A DNA stretch of 64,000 bases from Gemmatimonadales bacterium. Lineage in GTDB: Bacteria; Gemmatimonadota; Gemmatimonadetes; Gemmatimonadales; GWC2-71-9. Positions 13,227 to 25,468 of this stretch are shown here, piece after piece. The number at the start of each line of letters is the position of its first letter. Position 1 is the first letter of the stretch. The translations under genes were made by a program, and so were the position numbers. Location: contig DATGVZ010000066.1 of NCBI GenBank assembly GCA_035299765.1, forward strand, positions 8,698-72,697. Direction: 5' to 3'. Below the pieces are notes generated by a model, which saw only the letters and a list, made by a program, of their open reading frames with translations, was not told the DNA's origin and did not search any database.

Positions 13227-14537
13227 CTAGTGACGGGCCGCCAGATAATCCACGGCCGCATGCGCAAGTGCCCGTATACCAATCGGAAAGGCCGCTTCAT
13301 CCACGAAGAAGCGGGGCGAATGGTTCGGCGCCGCGGTGCGGGGATCCGTTCCCGGCGGCGTGATGCCCAAGAAGAAGAACACTCCGGGCACGCGCTCCTG
13401 ATAGCGGGAGAAATCCTCAGCCGCCGTGATCGGTGGGCCGAGTGAGACGTGAGTGGCACCGGCCACCGCGCGCAGGGTGGGAAGCAGTCTCTCGGTAAGC
13501 GCGGGATCGTTGTACGTCACCGGGTTGCCGCTGTCGATGGCGACAAACGCGGAGGCGCCGGCGCTTTGCGCGATGGATTCCGCGGTCCGCCGTACGCGAT
13601 CGAACACGTCGCGGCGCACAGCGTCCTCGAACGTGCGGATCGTTCCGATCATGACGACACTGTCGGGGATGATATTGTTGCGCACGCCACCATTGATCGC
13701 GCCGACGGTGACCACTGCGGGCGCAGCCGTCAAGTCGATCTGCCGGCTCGCGATCGTCTGAAGGCCGAGGACGATTTGCGACGCGATGACGATAGGATCG
13801 ATTCCCGCCCACGGAATCGCGCCATGTGTCTGCCGCCCGTGCACGACAATCCGGAAGGAGTTCGAGCTGGCCATCGTGCCGCCAGGCCGATAACGAATCT
13901 CGCCCGTTGGATACGGGAACACGTGCAGGCCAAAGATGGCGTCGGGTTTTGGATTCTCGAGCGCCCCTTCCGCGATCATCAGCGCGGCGCCCCCCTGTTC
14001 TCCCGCCGGCGCCCCTTCTTCCGCTGGCTGGAAGATGAATTTGACGGTCCCGGGGAGGTCGTTGCGCATGCTCGTCAGGATCTCGGCGACCCCCATGAGC
14101 ATGGCCGTGTGCGCGTCGTGGCCGCAGGCGTGCATGACGCCGACTTCCTGGCCGTTGTAGGTCGCCCGCACTTTGGACGCGAACGGCACATCGACCTCTT
14201 CGGTGACGGGCAGCGCGTCCATGTCCGCGCGGAGCGCCACGACCGGTCCCGGTTTGCCGCCGCGGAGTACGCCGACGACCCCGGTATGGGCGACGCCGGT
14301 GCGCACCTCGAGTCCCAGCGCGCGGAGCTCCTGCGCGACGATGTCAGCGGTACGCGTCTCGCGATTCGACAGCTCCGGATGCGCGTGGATGTCACGACGC
14401 CACGCGACGACTTTCTCGACGACTTGCGGGACGCGCCGATCGACATCGGCGTCAAGGCGGTTTGCTTGGGCGGAGAGAGATGGAACGGCCGCAAACGCGG
14501 CCAGGGACATCGAGGCAATGCGCAGGAGAGTAGTCAT
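13227..14537 (-). CDS. M20D family amidohydrolase (N-acyl-amino acid amidohydrolase-like), secreted
   Basis: Signal peptide MTTLLRIASMSLAAFAAVPSLSAQ. Motifs WRRDIHAHPELS, MHACGHDAH and FQPAEEG are typical of M20D. Confidence 0.85.
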   Translation of the reverse strand: MTTLLRIASMSLAAFAAVPSLSAQANRLDADVDRRVPQVVEKVVAWRRDIHAHPELSNRETRTADIVAQELRALGLEVRTGVAHTGVVGVLRGGKPGPVVALRADMDALPVTEEVDVPFASKVRATYNGQEVGVMHACGHDAHTAMLMGVAEILTSMRNDLPGTVKFIFQPAEEGAPAGEQGGAALMIAEGALENPKPDAIFGLHVFPYPTGEIRYRPGGTMASSNSFRIVVHGRQTHGAIPWAGIDPIVIASQIVLGLQTIASRQIDLTAAPAVVTVGAINGGVRNNIIPDSVVMIGTIRTFEDAVRRDVFDRVRRTAESIAQSAGASAFVAIDSGNPVTYNDPALTERLLPTLRAVAGATHVSLGPPITAAEDFSRYQERVPGVFFFLGITPPGTDPRTAAPNHSPRFFVDEAAFPIGIRALAHAAVDYLAARH

Positions 14538-16564: not shown

Positions 16565-17296
16565 GTGGTCACCTTTGCGATCATTCAATCCGGTTTGTCG
16601 AACGCGCTGCAACATCAGCCGCTCGTTGCCGTGCCGCTGCTCTTTCTGGCCGGTCTTGTGACGAGCACCAATCCCTGCATTTGGCCGATGATCCCGATCA
16701 CCATCGGTACGATCACCGGCGTGGGGGGGGGCACGCAGGGCGCGACGCCTTCGCGCCGCCGCACGATTGCGCTGACGCTGACGTACGTCGCCGGGCTGGC
16801 GCTGTTTTACGCGATTCTCGGACTGATCGCAGGATTGAGCGGATCGCTGTTCGGCACCATCAGCTCGAACCGATGGTCGCGCCTCGTCATCGGGAGTCTG
16901 CTGCTCGTGTTTGCACTGGTGATGTTCGACGTGATTCCGGTCCGGATGCCGGCGCGGTTGGCCACGTGGGCCGGAAGTCTCGGCGGAGGATCGTATCCGG
17001 CGGTGTTTCTGCTGGGCGCCACTTCAGGAATCGTCGCGGCCCCCTGCGGTGCGCCCGCATTCGCGGTGGTCCTCACCTGGGTGGCGGCGACGCACAGTGC
17101 GACGTTGGGATTCGTGTACCTGTTTGTATTCTCGTTGGGAATGACGGCCGTCCTGATGATCGTCGGGATCTTCTCGGGAGTGCTGGCAATTCTGCCGAAG
17201 CCGGGCGCATGGATGAACAGGATCAAAAAAGCCGCGGGCGTGGTTCTCCTGCTCATGGCTGAGTACTACTTCGTCAAAGCGGGGCAAGTATGGTGA
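16565..17296 (+). CDS. ccdA: Cytochrome c biogenesis/thiol-disulfide transmembrane electron transporter CcdA (DsbD family)
   Basis: Polytopic protein with the two conserved Cys regions, LVTSTNPCIWPMIP and GIVAAPCGAPAF. Confidence 0.85.
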   Translation: MVTFAIIQSGLSNALQHQPLVAVPLLFLAGLVTSTNPCIWPMIPITIGTITGVGGGTQGATPSRRRTIALTLTYVAGLALFYAILGLIAGLSGSLFGTISSNRWSRLVIGSLLLVFALVMFDVIPVRMPARLATWAGSLGGGSYPAVFLLGATSGIVAAPCGAPAFAVVLTWVAATHSATLGFVYLFVFSLGMTAVLMIVGIFSGVLAILPKPGAWMNRIKKAAGVVLLLMAEYYFVKAGQVW

Positions 17297-17823
17297 CTGG
17301 GTACGCGGTGTGCGGTGCGGTGTGCGCGGGGGTGCTGCTCTTGGGGCCCGCCCTCATGTCTGCACAAGAGGTCATCGGCATTCCGGTCGGCGAGACGCCG
17401 CCCGCCGTCACGCTGCAGAATCTCAACGGCGACTCAGTCTCCTTGTCCCAATGGATCGGGAAGAAGCCCGTCCTCATCGAGTTTTGGGCGACGTGGTGCC
17501 CCATTTGCGCCGAGCTGTTGCCGCGGATGGAGGCCGCCCACAAGAAGTACGGCGATCGCGCCGAGTTTCTCGTGGTCGCCGTGGCCGTGAACGAGAGCCA
17601 GAACACGGTTCGGCGTCATCTCGAGAAGCAGCCGATGCCGTTCACCATCCTCTGGGATGGCAACGGCGCCGCGGTGCGCGCCTTTCAAGCCCCGAACACG
17701 TCCTACGTCGCGGTTCTCGACGCCACAGGGCGCGTTGTGTATACGGGGGTCGGGGCGGATCAGGATATCGAAGGAGGACTCCAAAAGGCGGCAGGGGCGC
17801 CAACGGCGGCAGGGCGACGTTAG
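17290..17823 (+). CDS. TlpA/ResA-like periplasmic thioredoxin-fold thiol:disulfide oxidoreductase
   Basis: Signal/anchor sequence followed by KPVLIEFWATWCPICAELLP (WCxxC). It overlaps ccdA by 7 nt. Confidence 0.85.
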   Translation: MVTGYAVCGAVCAGVLLLGPALMSAQEVIGIPVGETPPAVTLQNLNGDSVSLSQWIGKKPVLIEFWATWCPICAELLPRMEAAHKKYGDRAEFLVVAVAVNESQNTVRRHLEKQPMPFTILWDGNGAAVRAFQAPNTSYVAVLDATGRVVYTGVGADQDIEGGLQKAAGAPTAAGRR

Positions 17824-17848: not shown

Positions 17849-18433
17849 TCATTGCCGCCCTGTGCTGTCCGCCGGCACCAGCTTCGCGATCGCCGCCGTC
17901 AACTCCGTATATGCGGTCGGATCGATCTCCCGGAACGGCGTCGCTCGGTAGGCGATTTTCCCGTCCGGTCCTACTACGAACAGAGTGCGGTTGTCGAGCT
18001 TGTACTGGGCGTTGAACGCGCCATACGCTTTCCCGACCGCTGAATTCGAATCGCTCGCAAACAGGAATGGATACTCGGCGTCCCGCGCCCATGAGGCGAG
18101 GGCGGTGTCCGGGTCTGCGCTGATGGCGATGAGAACGACGTTGCGGCCGTTTTTGAAAACCTGTGCGTACTGATCACGGTACGCATTCATTTGAATCGTT
18201 CAGCCACGCGTTCGGGCTTTGAAGAAGAACGCGAGCACGACCGTCTTTCCCTTGTAATCGCTGAGGCGCACTGGACTGCGGACCGTTCCGAATCGGGTTG
18301 CGCCGGGCACGGAGAAGTCGGGAGCTACGGCGCCGACCTCTGGTACCGGCGGCGCAGCCGGCGCGGCCTGCTGTTGCGCCGCGGCGCCAGCCGCCAAAAC
18401 GGTGAGCCCACCAACCAACGCAAGCTGTCGCAT
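17849..18433 (-). CDS. Exported AhpC/TSA-family peroxiredoxin with in-frame TGA at the peroxidatic Cys position (candidate selenoprotein, or otherwise a nonsense-disrupted gene)
   Basis: Track ORFs 18200..18433 and 17849..18190 share one frame. The joined sequence reads APDFSVPG...KGKTVVLAFFFKARTRG-TGA-TIQMNAYRDQY...DNRTLFVVGPDGKI. The TGA (18202-18200) sits where the T-x-x-C active-site Cys belongs. The signal peptide is MRQLALVGGLTVLAAGAAAQ. Confidence 0.65.
18164..18185 (-). promoter_or_regulatory. SECIS-like hairpin downstream of the in-frame UGA
   Basis: On the minus-strand RNA the sequence is UGA + 14 nt + UGCGUAC-CGUGAUCA-GUACGCA. That is a perfect 7-bp stem with an 8-nt loop carrying G at position 2, and the loop starts about 21 nt after the UGA. 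Confidence 0.5.
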
Positions 18434-18495
18434 AGACGATCCTCTTTTAGAGCCGCGAGAATATATCTATTTGGCGAGCAGCTCGCCGGTCTTCA

Positions 18496-19038
18496 TCAGT
18501 GACCTCCTTCTCCCACGCGGTACCGGGTTCTGAGAATCTCTACGTGATGCCGTTCGTGCCCCGGAATCATGTACGCGATCGCCCGCACGCTCACCGGGTT
18601 GCCGCTCGCGGTGCCGCGTCGGCGCCACGCATCGGCATCGAATGTGCGCAACAGGGCGAGGGTCGCGGCCCGGGCGGTACGCAGCTCGCCGACGAGATCG
18701 GCGAGCGAGCGGGTGTCGAACTTTGCGACCGGGACATACGCGTTCTCATCGAATCCCGGCAGCGGCGTGGTATCGCCGCGCGCGATCCGTAACGCCCGGT
18801 AGGCCATGATGCGCTCGATGTCGGCGAGGTGGCCAACGATTTCCTTGACGCTCCATTTGTCGCGGGCGTAGCGATGCATCGCGTCCGCGTCGGACAGCCC
18901 GCGCAGCAACGCCGCCGTGTCCTCGATCTGCGACGCGCAGACGATCACCGGATCCAGCTCGGGAACGCGCTTGATGTAACCGACGAAATGCGATGGAATC
19001 TCGTCCGGCTCCGGCCGGCCGACGGTTCTGGCGTTCAC
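18496..19038 (-). CDS. DinB family protein
   Basis: 180 aa four-helix-bundle type with His triad context (...EIVGHLADIERI..., ...PGHERHHVEIL). GTGA overlap with the upstream DinB gene. Confidence 0.75.
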   Translation of the reverse strand: MNARTVGRPEPDEIPSHFVGYIKRVPELDPVIVCASQIEDTAALLRGLSDADAMHRYARDKWSVKEIVGHLADIERIMAYRALRIARGDTTPLPGFDENAYVPVAKFDTRSLADLVGELRTARAATLALLRTFDADAWRRRGTASGNPVSVRAIAYMIPGHERHHVEILRTRYRVGEGGH

Positions 19039-19532
19039 GACGCCTTTCCGCCGAGCTCATTCAACGCCATCGCCTTCACGGTTTTCCCCTCTCCCGTCAG
19101 AATGCGCCGGTGATAATCCACCTGGCCGAGGTGATAGGCGAGATGCGTAGCGAAATGAGCGAGGAACGCGCCGGTGGTGGAGTTGACGCCGCCCACCGGC
19201 TCGGGATATGGCCGAGCGAGGTCGGCCTCGCTGACCTTGCTCATCCCGGTCTGGACCGCGGCGATCGCGTTATCGATCTCGCGCAGCAGCTCGGCACGCG
19301 GGATGTCGCGGCTGCCGAACTCGGCGTCGCGATTGCGGACGTATCCGTTCTTGCCGAGCACGTGACCGACGAAATACTGAAGATTGCCGGCGAGGTGAAG
19401 GGCGAGATTACCGCCGGGATTCGCGATGCCGGGCAGAACTTCCCAGAGGCCCTCATCGCTCGGGTACGACTCGATCTCGCGGCGCAGCGCCTTGAGCTCG
19501 CGGGTGATGACGTTGGTGATCCAGTCTTTCAT
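19035..19532 (-). CDS. DinB family protein (DUF1572-like)
   Basis: MKDWITNVITRELKALRREIESYP...NLALHLAGNLQYFVGHVLG...HLAYHLGQVDYH, the DinB superfamily pattern. Confidence 0.75.
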   Translation of the reverse strand: MKDWITNVITRELKALRREIESYPSDEGLWEVLPGIANPGGNLALHLAGNLQYFVGHVLGKNGYVRNRDAEFGSRDIPRAELLREIDNAIAAVQTGMSKVSEADLARPYPEPVGGVNSTTGAFLAHFATHLAYHLGQVDYHRRILTGEGKTVKAMALNELGGKAS

Positions 19533-23450: not shown

Positions 23451-25286
23451 CTACTGGAACACTTGCAGCGCCACCTCGACCCGGCCGAACGGCGCGCTCA
23501 CCTGAACCCCCTGCACCATTTGCTTGACCCGCGTGAACATCTCACGCGCGATGGTGACGCCCTCCGCGAGCGCCGCTTCCTTCCCTTGCTCCTGCGCCTT
23601 CCTCATGCGCTGGAGCACCTCCTCGGGCACCGACACGCCGGGGACTTCGTTCGCGAGAAACTCGGCGTTGCGCAGGGAAATGAGCGGCCAGACCCCGGCG
23701 ACGATGGGCAGCTTGAACTGATCGACGCGCTGGAGAAATGCCTCGAGCTGGCGCACGTCGAACACCGGCTGCGTCACAGCGAATTCCGCCCCCGCATCCA
23801 CCTTCCACGCGAACCGCGACAGCTCGCGATCCTGGTCGCCGGCACCGGGATTCACGCCGACACCGATCGCCCACTTCGTGGCGCCGCCGAGCGGATTGTT
23901 GCCGGGATCGAGGCCCTGGTTCAATCGATAGACGAGGTTCGTCAAGCCGATCGAATCGATGTCGAACACCGCGGTCGCTTCGGGATAGGGCCCCATCTTC
24001 GGCGGATCGCCCGTGATGATGAGAATGTTGCGCAACCCCGCGGCGTGTGCGCCGATGATGTCCGACAGCATGCCGAGCAGGTTGCGGTCGCGGCAGCAGT
24101 AGTGAATCACGGTCTCGATGCCCACCTCGCGCTCGATCAGCAGCGCCGATGGCAGTACCCCCATGCGACTTTGCGCGCGTGGGCCATCGGGCACGTTCAC
24201 CGCATCCACACCGGCGGCTTTCAGCGCGCGACACTGCGCCAGCATCGGCGTCGGATCCACACCCTTGGGCGGCACGATCTCGACGCTCGTCACCAGCTCA
24301 CCGCGCGCGAGCTTATTGCCCCAGCCGGATTTCAAGGCGAGCGGGGTCGCCGTCACTCCCTCAGGCGCCTTCACCTGCGCGCGCGAGACGACGACGCTCG
24401 GCTGCCGCGGCACCACGCTGGCGACGTAGTCGCGGATCTTCTTGATGTGTTCCGGCGTCGAGCCGCAACAGCCGCCGACGAAGCGCGCGCCCGCTTCGAT
24501 CATGCGCCGCGCGTAGCTCGCCATGTACTCGGGAGACGCGAGATAGATCTTGCGGTCGCCCACATCCTTGGGCAGACCGGCATTGGGCTGCGCCGAGATC
24601 GGCTTGTCCGTCGCCTTCACCATCTTTTCGACGGCCTCGAGCACGCCCGCCGGCCCGACGGAGCAGTTCACACCGATCACATCCGCGCCCCACGCCGTGA
24701 GCTGCTTGGTGAAGGTCTCGGGATCGGTGCCGTAGTACGTCAGGCCATCGGTGCCGATCGTCATCTGGCAGACGACGGGCAGATCGGTTGCGGCGCGCAC
24801 GGCGTTCAGCGCCGCGTGCATTTCCTGCATGTCGCTGAACGTCTCGAGCACGAAGCCGTCCACGCGGCCGGCAAGCAGGCCCTGCACCTGCCGGGCGAAC
24901 AGCGCTTGCGCTTCGGCTTGCGAGGTCGGGCCGAACGGCTCGATGCGAATGCCGAGTGGGCCGATCGCGCCGACCACGCTTGCGCGGCCTCCCGCAGCGG
25001 CGCGCGCCAGCTCGGCGGCGGTGCGGTTGATCTTCTCGGTGTCGTCGGCGAGACCGTAGCTGTTGAGCTTCAGCGGATTGGCGCCGAAGGTATTGGTCTC
25101 CAGGATCTCCGCGCCCGCGCGCACGTACTCCGCGTGCACTTCCTGCACGAGCCGCGGTTGCTTCAGGTTCAGCTCGTCATAGCAGACGTTCAGGAAGAAG
25201 CCCTTGCCGTACAGCATCGTGCCCATCGCCCCGTCGAAGACGTGGACGCGGCCGTCGGCAATGAGAGATCGGAAGTCAGTAGGCAT
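23451..25286 (-). CDS. Bifunctional homocysteine S-methyltransferase / 5,10-methylenetetrahydrofolate reductase (YitJ-like)
   Basis: The N-terminus FDGAMGTMLY...ILETNTFGAN...GGCCGSTPEHI is the Hcy S-methyltransferase domain, and the C-terminal half is MetF-like (...HYCCRDRN...ITGDPP...). Start set at ATG 25286 (MPTDFRSLIADGRVHVFDGAMGT) by collinearity with YitJ. Confidence 0.9.
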   Translation of the reverse strand: MPTDFRSLIADGRVHVFDGAMGTMLYGKGFFLNVCYDELNLKQPRLVQEVHAEYVRAGAEILETNTFGANPLKLNSYGLADDTEKINRTAAELARAAAGGRASVVGAIGPLGIRIEPFGPTSQAEAQALFARQVQGLLAGRVDGFVLETFSDMQEMHAALNAVRAATDLPVVCQMTIGTDGLTYYGTDPETFTKQLTAWGADVIGVNCSVGPAGVLEAVEKMVKATDKPISAQPNAGLPKDVGDRKIYLASPEYMASYARRMIEAGARFVGGCCGSTPEHIKKIRDYVASVVPRQPSVVVSRAQVKAPEGVTATPLALKSGWGNKLARGELVTSVEIVPPKGVDPTPMLAQCRALKAAGVDAVNVPDGPRAQSRMGVLPSALLIEREVGIETVIHYCCRDRNLLGMLSDIIGAHAAGLRNILIITGDPPKMGPYPEATAVFDIDSIGLTNLVYRLNQGLDPGNNPLGGATKWAIGVGVNPGAGDQDRELSRFAWKVDAGAEFAVTQPVFDVRQLEAFLQRVDQFKLPIVAGVWPLISLRNAEFLANEVPGVSVPEEVLQRMRKAQEQGKEAALAEGVTIAREMFTRVKQMVQGVQVSAPFGRVEVALQVFQ

Positions 25287-25303
25287 CGGTTGCGTGTCGT
25301 CCC

Positions 25304-25342
25304 AAAAGAAATCCCCGCCCAAGGCCAACGCCCGGTACGGGG
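25304..25342 (-). terminator. Leader hairpin plus U-tract upstream of the Hcy-methyltransferase/MTHFR start (candidate attenuator/terminator)
   Basis: The minus-strand RNA reads CCCCG-(20 nt)-CGGGG followed by AUUUCUUUU. It ends 18 nt before ATG 25286. Confidence 0.4.
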
Positions 25343-25345
25343 TCT

Positions 25346-25395
25346 GGCTTTTTAGCGGTTGTTTAACGTGGCCGCAATACGCCGCAAATCGCCAC
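25346..25395 (-). promoter_or_regulatory. Candidate SAM-II-like pseudoknot riboswitch in the leader of the methionine-cycle gene
   Basis: The minus-strand RNA reads GUGGCGAUUUGCGGCGUAUUGCGGCCACGUUAAACAACCGCUAAAAAGCC. Helix GUGGC/GCCAC is interleaved with UUGCGG/CCGC(U)AA, giving H-type pseudoknot topology. The GAUUU...UUGC...GCUAAAAAGC strings resemble my memory of the SAM-II consensus. No covariance-model search was run. Confidence 0.35.
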
Positions 25396-25468
25396 GAATC
25401 GGTTGTCTCTGCTCAACGTAGCGGCACCGGAAAATAATAGCCAGGGTCAAGCGTACTCTTATAAGAAC

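Follow-up and report, generated by a model that had tools for sequence, protein, structure and literature searches.

In a 64,000-nucleotide (nt) stretch of a Gemmatimonadales genome (NCBI GenBank assembly GCA_035299765.1, contig DATGVZ010000066.1, positions 8,698 to 72,697; hereafter the window), we analyzed a minus-strand region, 18433..17849, that is interrupted by an in-frame TGA. This region is very probably one gene, encoding an exported "1-Sec" peroxiredoxin (Prx) of the BCP/PrxQ-like type, and decoding of the UGA as selenocysteine (Sec) is itself highly likely. The UGA sits in the catalytic column of the family, both halves of the gene show selection, a covarying hairpin follows the UGA, the family and fold are those of a peroxiredoxin, and the gene order is conserved among relatives. 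From these observations we infer the identity of the inserted residue, the export of the protein, and an electron path from CcdA through TlpA to the peroxiredoxin. An earlier reading of the window (hereafter the original prediction) had named the gene a candidate selenoprotein, and this is strongly supported by TGA in 160 sequences, selection on both sides of it, Cys in the distant homologues, and the covarying hairpin.

Two minus-strand open reading frames (ORFs), 18200..18433 (77 amino acids, aa) and 17849..18190 (113 aa), share a frame and are separated by a TGA (18202..18200) and three codons (ACG ATT CAA). The original prediction had described the same arrangement, and its coordinates are borne out by the ORF list and the translation. 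Read as a whole (17849..18433, minus strand, like all features of this gene), translation gives a 194-residue precursor with Sec as residue 78 and matches to the Pfam families AhpC-TSA and Redoxin. The gene runs from the start ATG at 18433..18431 to a true TGA terminator at 17851..17849, and a Shine-Dalgarno-like AAGAGGA is located 6 nt upstream of the ATG (18440..18446). The joined translation, MRQLALVGGLTVLAAGAAAQQQ...VVLAFFFKARTRG-[TGA]-TIQMNAYRDQYAQVF...DNRTLFVVGPDGK...GRQ-[stop], contains one internal TGA and no Cys, and across the TGA it reads ...VVLAFFFKARTRG-[TGA]-TIQMNAYRDQY.... The same 585-nt gene, with the TGA, was found in four contigs assembled independently from different samples. 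Recurrence of the identical gene in four independent assemblies rules out a sequencing error as the source of the TGA; TGC or TGT in its place was one of the results by which the original prediction could have failed. The gene was called as 77 aa and 113 aa in all four contigs with the identical gene, and in every public assembly examined it was either called as ORFs of 77 aa and 112/113 aa or read through with genetic code 4.

We surveyed relatives of this gene in GTDB species-representative genomes, which returned 80 loci with 65-91% protein identity, and in metagenomes, where the search was seeded with Cys forms only and also returned 80 loci. TGA was present at the Sec codon in all 80 genome loci, which were assigned to Gemmatimonadales, Longimicrobiales, unnamed Gemmatimonadota metagenome-assembled genomes, and one record labelled Bacillati; Longimicrobiales are themselves part of Gemmatimonadota. 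Despite the Cys-form-only seeds, 78 of the 80 metagenome loci had TGA and the other two had TGC. With the window itself added, along with loci retrieved through exact protein look-ups, these surveys gave a total of 174 sequences, in which codon 78 was TGA (160), TGC (13), or TTA (1). A protein search found 33 fragments of approximately 112 aa with 84-97% identity, which are C-terminal halves and therefore indicate the same stop in their genes. Full-length proteins bearing Cys at the aligned column made up 76 of the best 120 database matches (52-70% identity), and in an alignment with 11 Cys homologues the TGA (18200..18202) fell on the invariant Cys78, so that a UGA is paired with the Cys of homologues at a redox-active site, as in a selenoprotein gene. 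Comparison of this column among orthologues had been proposed as a check in the original prediction, and it came out in favor of selenocysteine, with TGA in 160 of 174 sequences and Cys in the more distant homologues. Among the closest relatives the TGA form was much commoner than the Cys form. A neighbor-joining tree of Sec and Cys forms was too poorly resolved to count conversions between the two, and it placed a few Cys forms among the Sec forms.

Both halves of the gene are under purifying selection. In none of the 160 TGA forms was another stop found within 45 codons 5' or 50 codons 3' of the TGA. The proportions of synonymous (pS) and nonsynonymous (pN) differences, calculated by the Nei-Gojobori method, were 0.51 and 0.14 for the 45 codons upstream (pN/pS of approximately 0.28) and 0.47 and 0.17 for the 50 codons downstream (approximately 0.35). 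Because synonymous divergence was approximately 50%, the TGA loci are not copies of one clone. In 157 of 159 loci, the frame ended 108-119 codons past the TGA. The true terminator in the 159 was TAG (60), TAA (59), or TGA (40), and the coding-like long ORFs of the window ended in TGA (12), TAG (9), or TAA (6). TGA is thus an ordinary stop in these genes and in the ORFs of the window, and the code is therefore not reassigned.

For the Pfam search, Cys was substituted for the internal stop. The protein matched AhpC-TSA (PF00578) with an E-value of 1.8e-28 (99.4 bits against a cut-off of 26) and Redoxin with 1.2e-18 (67.8 bits against a cut-off of 26.6). Its score against the PrxU equivalog, NCBIfam NF040737, was 59.8 bits against a cut-off of 270, and by sequence and by the fold of a Cys homologue the protein is BCP/PrxQ-like and not PrxU, contrary to the "PrxU type" suggested in the original prediction. 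The closest solved relatives by sequence were the archaeal BCP/PrxQ proteins 2ywn (E-value 1.8e-15), 3hjp, and 2cx3 and AhpE of Mycobacterium tuberculosis, and the peroxidatic Cys of the solved relatives, including that of BCP 2ywn, aligned with the TGA. The structure was modelled for the Cys homologue P0004 (64% identical) in place of the window protein. The AlphaFold model of P0004, with a predicted local distance difference test (pLDDT) score of 86 and a predicted template modelling (pTM) score of 0.79, has a Prx fold in which C81 opens helix 79-90, which places the peroxidatic residue at the N-terminal end of helix alpha2, and its best PDB matches were BCP/PrxQ structures with target-normalized TM-scores of 0.83-0.87.

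The active site retains most of what is expected from the family. In the alignment with the 11 Cys homologues, T75 was near-invariant and R74 and R149 were invariant. From the PxxxTxxC(U) motif and its distal Arg, the catalytic Thr75 (codon at 18209..18211), U78, and the catalytic Arg149 (codon at 17987..17989) are present, while the Pro is replaced with Phe71 (codon at 18221..18223). Three claims of the original prediction stand on this comparison: the TGA in TRG-[TGA]-T marks the peroxidatic residue, aligning with the invariant Cys78 and with the Cys of 2ywn; the downstream catalytic Arg is retained; and the protein has no other Cys, as was likewise the case for the complete mature proteins of the Sec form (0 of 151 with Cys). 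In the Cys forms, the peroxidatic Cys was the sole Cys conserved in the 11-homologue alignment. Since the Sec-form protein has no Cys, it requires recycling by an external thiol. At the column of the motif Pro, the Sec forms (n = 149) had Phe (121), Tyr (27), or Ser (1) and never Pro, and the Cys forms (n = 76) had Pro in 75 and Tyr in one (P0028). In these alignments, the replacement of Pro with Phe or Tyr appears to covary strictly with Sec.

The UGA is followed by a hairpin resembling a selenocysteine insertion sequence (SECIS) element at 18164..18185 (N-GCGUAC / CGUGAUCA / GUACGC-N'), recognized as an inverted repeat with invariant pairs and a covarying closing pair. The stem joins 18179-18185 with 18164-18170 over 7 nt with 100% complementarity (TGCGTAC / GTACGCA), and the 8-nt loop CGUGAUCA (18171-18178) has G at position 2 and G-U at positions 2-3. 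The stem begins 14 nt and the loop 21 nt after the UGA. In the single sequence this hairpin is no better than chance, with a fold z-score of -1.62 and 15 of 200 shuffles folding equally well, in a 585-nt gene that contains six short inverted repeats; its significance comes from comparison only. No SECIS family of Rfam matched in the window at the gathering threshold.

Among the TGA forms, positions +18..+37 (GCGUACCGUGAUCAGUACGC) were near-invariant in an ungapped alignment, including six third-codon positions, and pS for the six codons of the hairpin was 0.04 as compared to approximately 0.5 in the flanks. Six of the stem pairs were invariant. The seventh, the closing pair (+17/+38), is made of two synonymous sites, which were CG in 57, UA in 46, GC in 5, and AU in 1 of 110 distinct sequences, with one mismatch; its covariation score was matched by none of 500 shuffles and slid registers collapsed. 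The RNAalifold consensus of 143 distinct sequences was this 7-bp helix alone, with no conserved lower stem extending it. The original prediction had described a perfect 7-bp hairpin with the same spacing and loop G, which we could confirm as an inverted repeat and found to be constrained across relatives.

The loop separates Sec forms from Cys forms. Its codons were fixed as CGU in 138 and GAU in 139 of the 143 distinct Sec-form sequences, whereas the nine distinct Cys forms, most of which encode the same peptide AYRDQYA, had CGC or CGG in eight and GAC in seven, with GCC and UAU also occurring. CGU and GAU oppose the G+C-rich codon preference of the Cys forms, and the loop nucleotides U26 and U29 are thus selected only where the codon is UGA. 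Judged from these alignments, what speaks for the hairpin is its loop nucleotides, its closing pair, and the freeze at synonymous sites. The consensus for bacterial SECIS elements, as put forward by Zhang and Gladyshev in 2005, is said to be a stem-loop shortly 3' of the UGA, with its apical loop approximately 16-37 nt away and a G among the first two loop nucleotides, and the 7-bp stem, the distance of 21 nt, and the G at loop position 2 agree with it. The C-terminal winged-helix domain of SelB recognizes the loop G-U in the SelB-SECIS structures of Moorella and E. coli. The constraint gives a nucleotide signature 3' of the TGA, ACN NTN CAR ATG NNN GCG TAC CGT GAT CAG TAC GC.

A second perfect 7-bp hairpin just 5' of the UGA (18207-18213 with 18227-18233) was rejected as an unconserved chance feature. 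It forms 3-7 pairs in the other 123 distinct Sec-form sequences without covariation and provides an internal negative control for the downstream hairpin. Separately, rare codons ending in A or U were enriched only in the Sec forms at -12..+17 around the UGA (18185..18214, minus strand). Examples are CGA at -12 (104 of 143) and CAA at +9 (119 of 143), along with AUU, AAU, and CGU, and the nine Cys forms have G/C-ending codons at the positions flanking the Sec site. A role as unstructured spacer or in slowing the ribosome is possible for these codons.

Several observations weigh against reading this gene as an exported selenoprotein. ARAGORN and tblastn searches with E. coli SelA, SelB, and SelD found no tRNA-Sec, selA, selB, or selD in the window and 1.49 Mb of related loci, which are gene neighborhoods with flanks of at most 10 kb; the only tblastn matches were two weak ones to GTPase domains. 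Because only local flanks were covered, this negative is uninformative. Neither the window nor the related loci yielded a second selenoprotein gene: a scan of the window for in-frame TGAs with coding-like flanks gave antisense-looking frames only, and a comparison of all loci with one another for conserved in-frame TGAs recovered the prx cluster (160 of 160), the remaining candidates being rejected as true stops with in-frame neighbors or as antisense frames. The literature searched contained no report of Sec use in Gemmatimonadota. The missing active-site Pro means that ordinary Prx chemistry is not guaranteed, and the signal peptide was judged by eye alone. Six of the seven stem pairs, being invariant, are silent on covariation, and Cys forms with the AYRDQYA peptide (11 of 13 Cys-form loci) retain 6-7 stem pairs; the stem alone is not diagnostic because codon bias preserves most of it in Cys forms. 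Finally, one contig in ENA with a coverage of 1.6 has TTA (Leu) at the Sec codon (L002:332-334), and a database protein that is 92% identical (P0001) has Leu at the Sec position. Both may reflect G-to-T errors or, alternatively, inactive alleles that are rare.

The rarity of in-frame stops, and nothing more, speaks for a sequencing or assembly error that hides a real TGC or TGT; with the identical gene in four independent assemblies and TGA in 160 independent contigs, the probability of such an error is negligible. A nonsense mutation that killed a Cys peroxiredoxin would also break the frame of a single sequence such as that of the window and lead gene callers to report two ORFs, which would then be decaying remnants. 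We consider a pseudogene extremely improbable given that 160 sequences, with protein identities as low as approximately 65%, retain the TGA without any other stop, that pN/pS is low on both sides of it, and that the true stop is located at a steady distance in 157 of 159 loci. The original prediction had pointed to further lesions in relatives as a sign of a pseudogene, and none were found among the 160 TGA forms, in which both halves are under selection. The conservation of both pieces could, in principle, also reflect a split protein, in which a 77-residue exported peptide assembles with a 113-residue C-terminal protein translated from the ATG at 18190, four codons past the TGA. The C-terminal piece would then be without signal peptide and catalytic residue, and there is no Shine-Dalgarno sequence before this ATG, where GGCUGAACGAUUCAA is A/U-rich coding sequence. 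The ATG is no evidence of a start because its Met is the invariant M of TxQM, which is also present in the unsplit Cys forms. A split protein is thus very unlikely.

Recoding of the UGA as something other than Sec deserves more weight, although we still consider it unlikely. The UGA could be read through with insertion of Trp, Cys, Arg, or Gly, possibly stimulated by the hairpin, or Cys could be inserted in a SelB-dependent manner from Cys-tRNA(Sec). In favor of this explanation, downstream hairpins that stimulate read-through exist in other systems, and Sec machinery was found neither in the window nor in related neighborhoods. However, the codon sits where catalysis needs Cys or Sec, and Trp, Arg, or Gly would kill the enzyme. 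Insertion of Cys is at odds with the fact that TGC, which is one mutation away, was found in only 2 of the 160 scanned loci. The hairpin has bacterial SECIS geometry with a fixed loop G-U, and TGA also serves as a normal terminator of these genes. We therefore favor decoding of the UGA as Sec.

The location of the protein and its probable partners are suggested by its N-terminus and its neighbors. A putative Sec-type signal peptide, recognized by heuristic sequence reading, covers residues 1-19 (MRQLALVGGLTVLAAGAAA; 18377..18433, minus strand) with predicted cleavage before QQQ. The N-terminus consists of MRQ, a hydrophobic stretch, and AAA|QQQ, followed by a Pro/Ala-rich linker, and in every TGA-form homologue inspected a short hydrophobic N-terminus precedes a linker of the QQP(A/T)APP type. 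This pattern suggests that the protein is exported. Convergent to the gene are, on the plus strand, ccdA (16565..17296), encoding a DsbD transmembrane domain (Pfam DsbD_TM, 4.3e-43), and a TlpA-like thioredoxin-fold gene (17290..17823) with a WCPIC motif and a hydrophobic N-terminus (Pfam Redoxin, 2.1e-21; Thioredoxin, 2.8e-10). In TGA-form loci with enough downstream sequence, tlpA adjoins the gene convergently in 77 of 96 and the convergent ccdA-tlpA pair is in the same place in 76 of 96. The pair was also found beside Cys-form genes (six of eight inspected). The signal peptide and the ccdA-tlpA cluster of the original prediction both recur in relatives, the former as a hydrophobic N-terminal pattern seen by eye and the latter as the convergent pair. 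A DsbD-family protein, a TlpA-like thioredoxin, and a putatively exported Prx, the genes of an envelope peroxide chain, are thus found together.

We propose the following working model. The UGA at 18202..18200 would be read as selenocysteine during translation, with the hairpin at 18185..18164, 14 nt past the UGA, recruiting SelB-GTP-Sec-tRNA(Sec) in the manner of the fdhF SECIS in E. coli. The precursor would leave the cytoplasm via its N-terminal signal peptide. Once in the envelope, U78 may act as a selenolate, with T75 and R149 activating it, to reduce peroxide and become a selenenic acid, which would be resolved directly by the CxxC of TlpA, as the Prx itself has no Cys. CcdA would keep TlpA reduced with electrons from cytoplasmic thioredoxin. 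TlpA would thus be the direct reductant of the peroxiredoxin and CcdA the membrane electron conduit to TlpA. By analogy with the experimentally characterized pathway described below, we modestly favor a peroxide-reduction chain of CcdA, TlpA, and Sec-Prx as drawn here. We hold a broader proposal more tentatively and lean slightly towards doubting it, namely that Sec decoding is a core, order-wide trait of Gemmatimonadales for an envelope peroxidase whose gene is systematically split in public annotation. This enzyme would be a distinct mechanistic variant, a single-selenol Prx recycled by TlpA and CcdA, in which exchange of Cys for Sec goes obligatorily with the loss of the otherwise near-universal Pro (F/YxxxTxxU).

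Peroxiredoxins with a T/SxxU active site are an established family of bacterial selenoproteins (PMC13188914, PMC1794560). One survey lists 12 Prx selenoproteins and five Cys-to-Sec events in its Table 1 (PMC1794560), and a review describes Prx (PF00578, TxxU) with a "highly conserved PxxxTxxU motif" (PMC13188914). The novelty is therefore lower than implied in the original prediction. The gene shares with the Sec peroxiredoxins of other bacteria, such as PrxU of Eubacterium acidaminophilum, the AhpC/TSA fold, the T-x-x-U motif, common Cys homologues, and an intra-ORF SECIS(-like) element after the UGA. It differs in falling on the BCP/PrxQ-like branch, in the absence of the motif Pro (Phe or Tyr in 148 of 149 Sec forms), in the apparent signal peptide with dedicated CcdA-TlpA neighbors, and in its Gemmatimonadota lineage, with a spread from Gemmatimonadales to Longimicrobiales. 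These features set it apart from the known Sec peroxiredoxins, and the mechanism of Sec insertion itself is within the known framework.

The closest proteins by sequence (E-values of 1.8e-15 to 5e-12) are peroxiredoxins of the BCP/PrxQ and AhpE types that lack a resolving Cys, including those of Sulfolobus tokodaii (2ywn/4g2e), Bcp1 and Bcp4 of S. solfataricus, and AhpE and BcpB of M. tuberculosis. They share the positions of the catalytic Thr, Cys, and Arg, a single redox-active residue, and the fold of the Cys homologue. These relatives are cytoplasmic and use Cys, whereas the gene described here has UGA and encodes a putative export signal and a Pro/Ala-rich linker, with Phe at the position of the motif Pro. 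In Caulobacter crescentus, an envelope peroxide pathway from ScsB through TlpA to the exported Prx PprX has been demonstrated experimentally (Cho et al. 2012, PMC3322552). It likewise combines a DsbD-family transporter, TlpA, and a Prx, here putatively exported. In the window and the related loci, the three genes are adjacent and syntenic, a minimal CcdA takes the place of ScsB, and the Prx is of the Sec form. Compared with the SECIS of E. coli fdhF, the hairpin is similarly located within the ORF, directly after the UGA, and likewise carries G-U as the second and third loop nucleotides. The loop starts 18 nt after the UGA in fdhF (GGUC, 4 nt) and 21 nt after it here (8 nt), and we found neither a bulged U in the stem nor a conserved lower stem.

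Gemmatimonadales are an abundant and largely aerobic lineage in soil. Because the gene is split or read through in public annotation, a conserved antioxidant enzyme of a major soil phylum is missing from functional profiles, and the nucleotide signature after the TGA would permit automatic re-annotation. If the UGA is read as proposed, these soil bacteria would need selenium and Sec machinery for an envelope peroxidase. To our knowledge, few exported bacterial selenoenzymes are known. The exchange of Pro for Phe or Tyr together with Sec amounts to a natural experiment on the proline of PxxxTxxC and on selenol versus thiol active sites. Gene calls with genetic code 4 can hide the selenoprotein in databases, as seen for a JGI locus (L001:548-1120) and the proteins P0003 and P0044, which have Trp at the Sec position; in the L001 locus (P0003), the call also overruns the true TGA terminator into unrelated sequence.

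Some further observations were made on the surveyed loci and elsewhere in the window. The record labelled Bacillati (contig L045, VBAL01000178.1, "Bacillati bacterium ANGP1") has a TGA-form gene with 79% identity to the window protein, and all other matches were from Gemmatimonadota. Mis-binning of this contig or transfer of the gene could account for this. Directly upstream of the peroxiredoxin gene and on the same strand are two genes of the DinB_2 superfamily (18496..19038 and 19035..19532, minus strand), one of which resembles MST/mycothiol-S-transferases. The proximal gene (18496..19038), the only one of the two that was searched for, has a homologue at the equivalent position in many TGA-form loci. 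The pair may represent co-transcribed genes for thiol-dependent detoxification.

A match to the SAM-II riboswitch (SAM_alpha, RF00521) was found at 25332..25405 on the minus strand, scoring 45.2 bits (gathering score, 36). The riboswitch match is immediately 5' of a gene encoding a fused homocysteine S-methyltransferase / MTHFR (23451..25328, minus strand). The family is named for Alphaproteobacteria, and its occurrence in a Gemmatimonadales genome may merit record. Lastly, an M20 peptidase gene (window 13227..14537, minus strand) is a single ORF of 436 aa in the window and in three other assemblies, and two ORFs of 180 and 250 aa in the corresponding locus of WNFF01000394.1 (L178:13654-14964), where the split is probably an assembly error.

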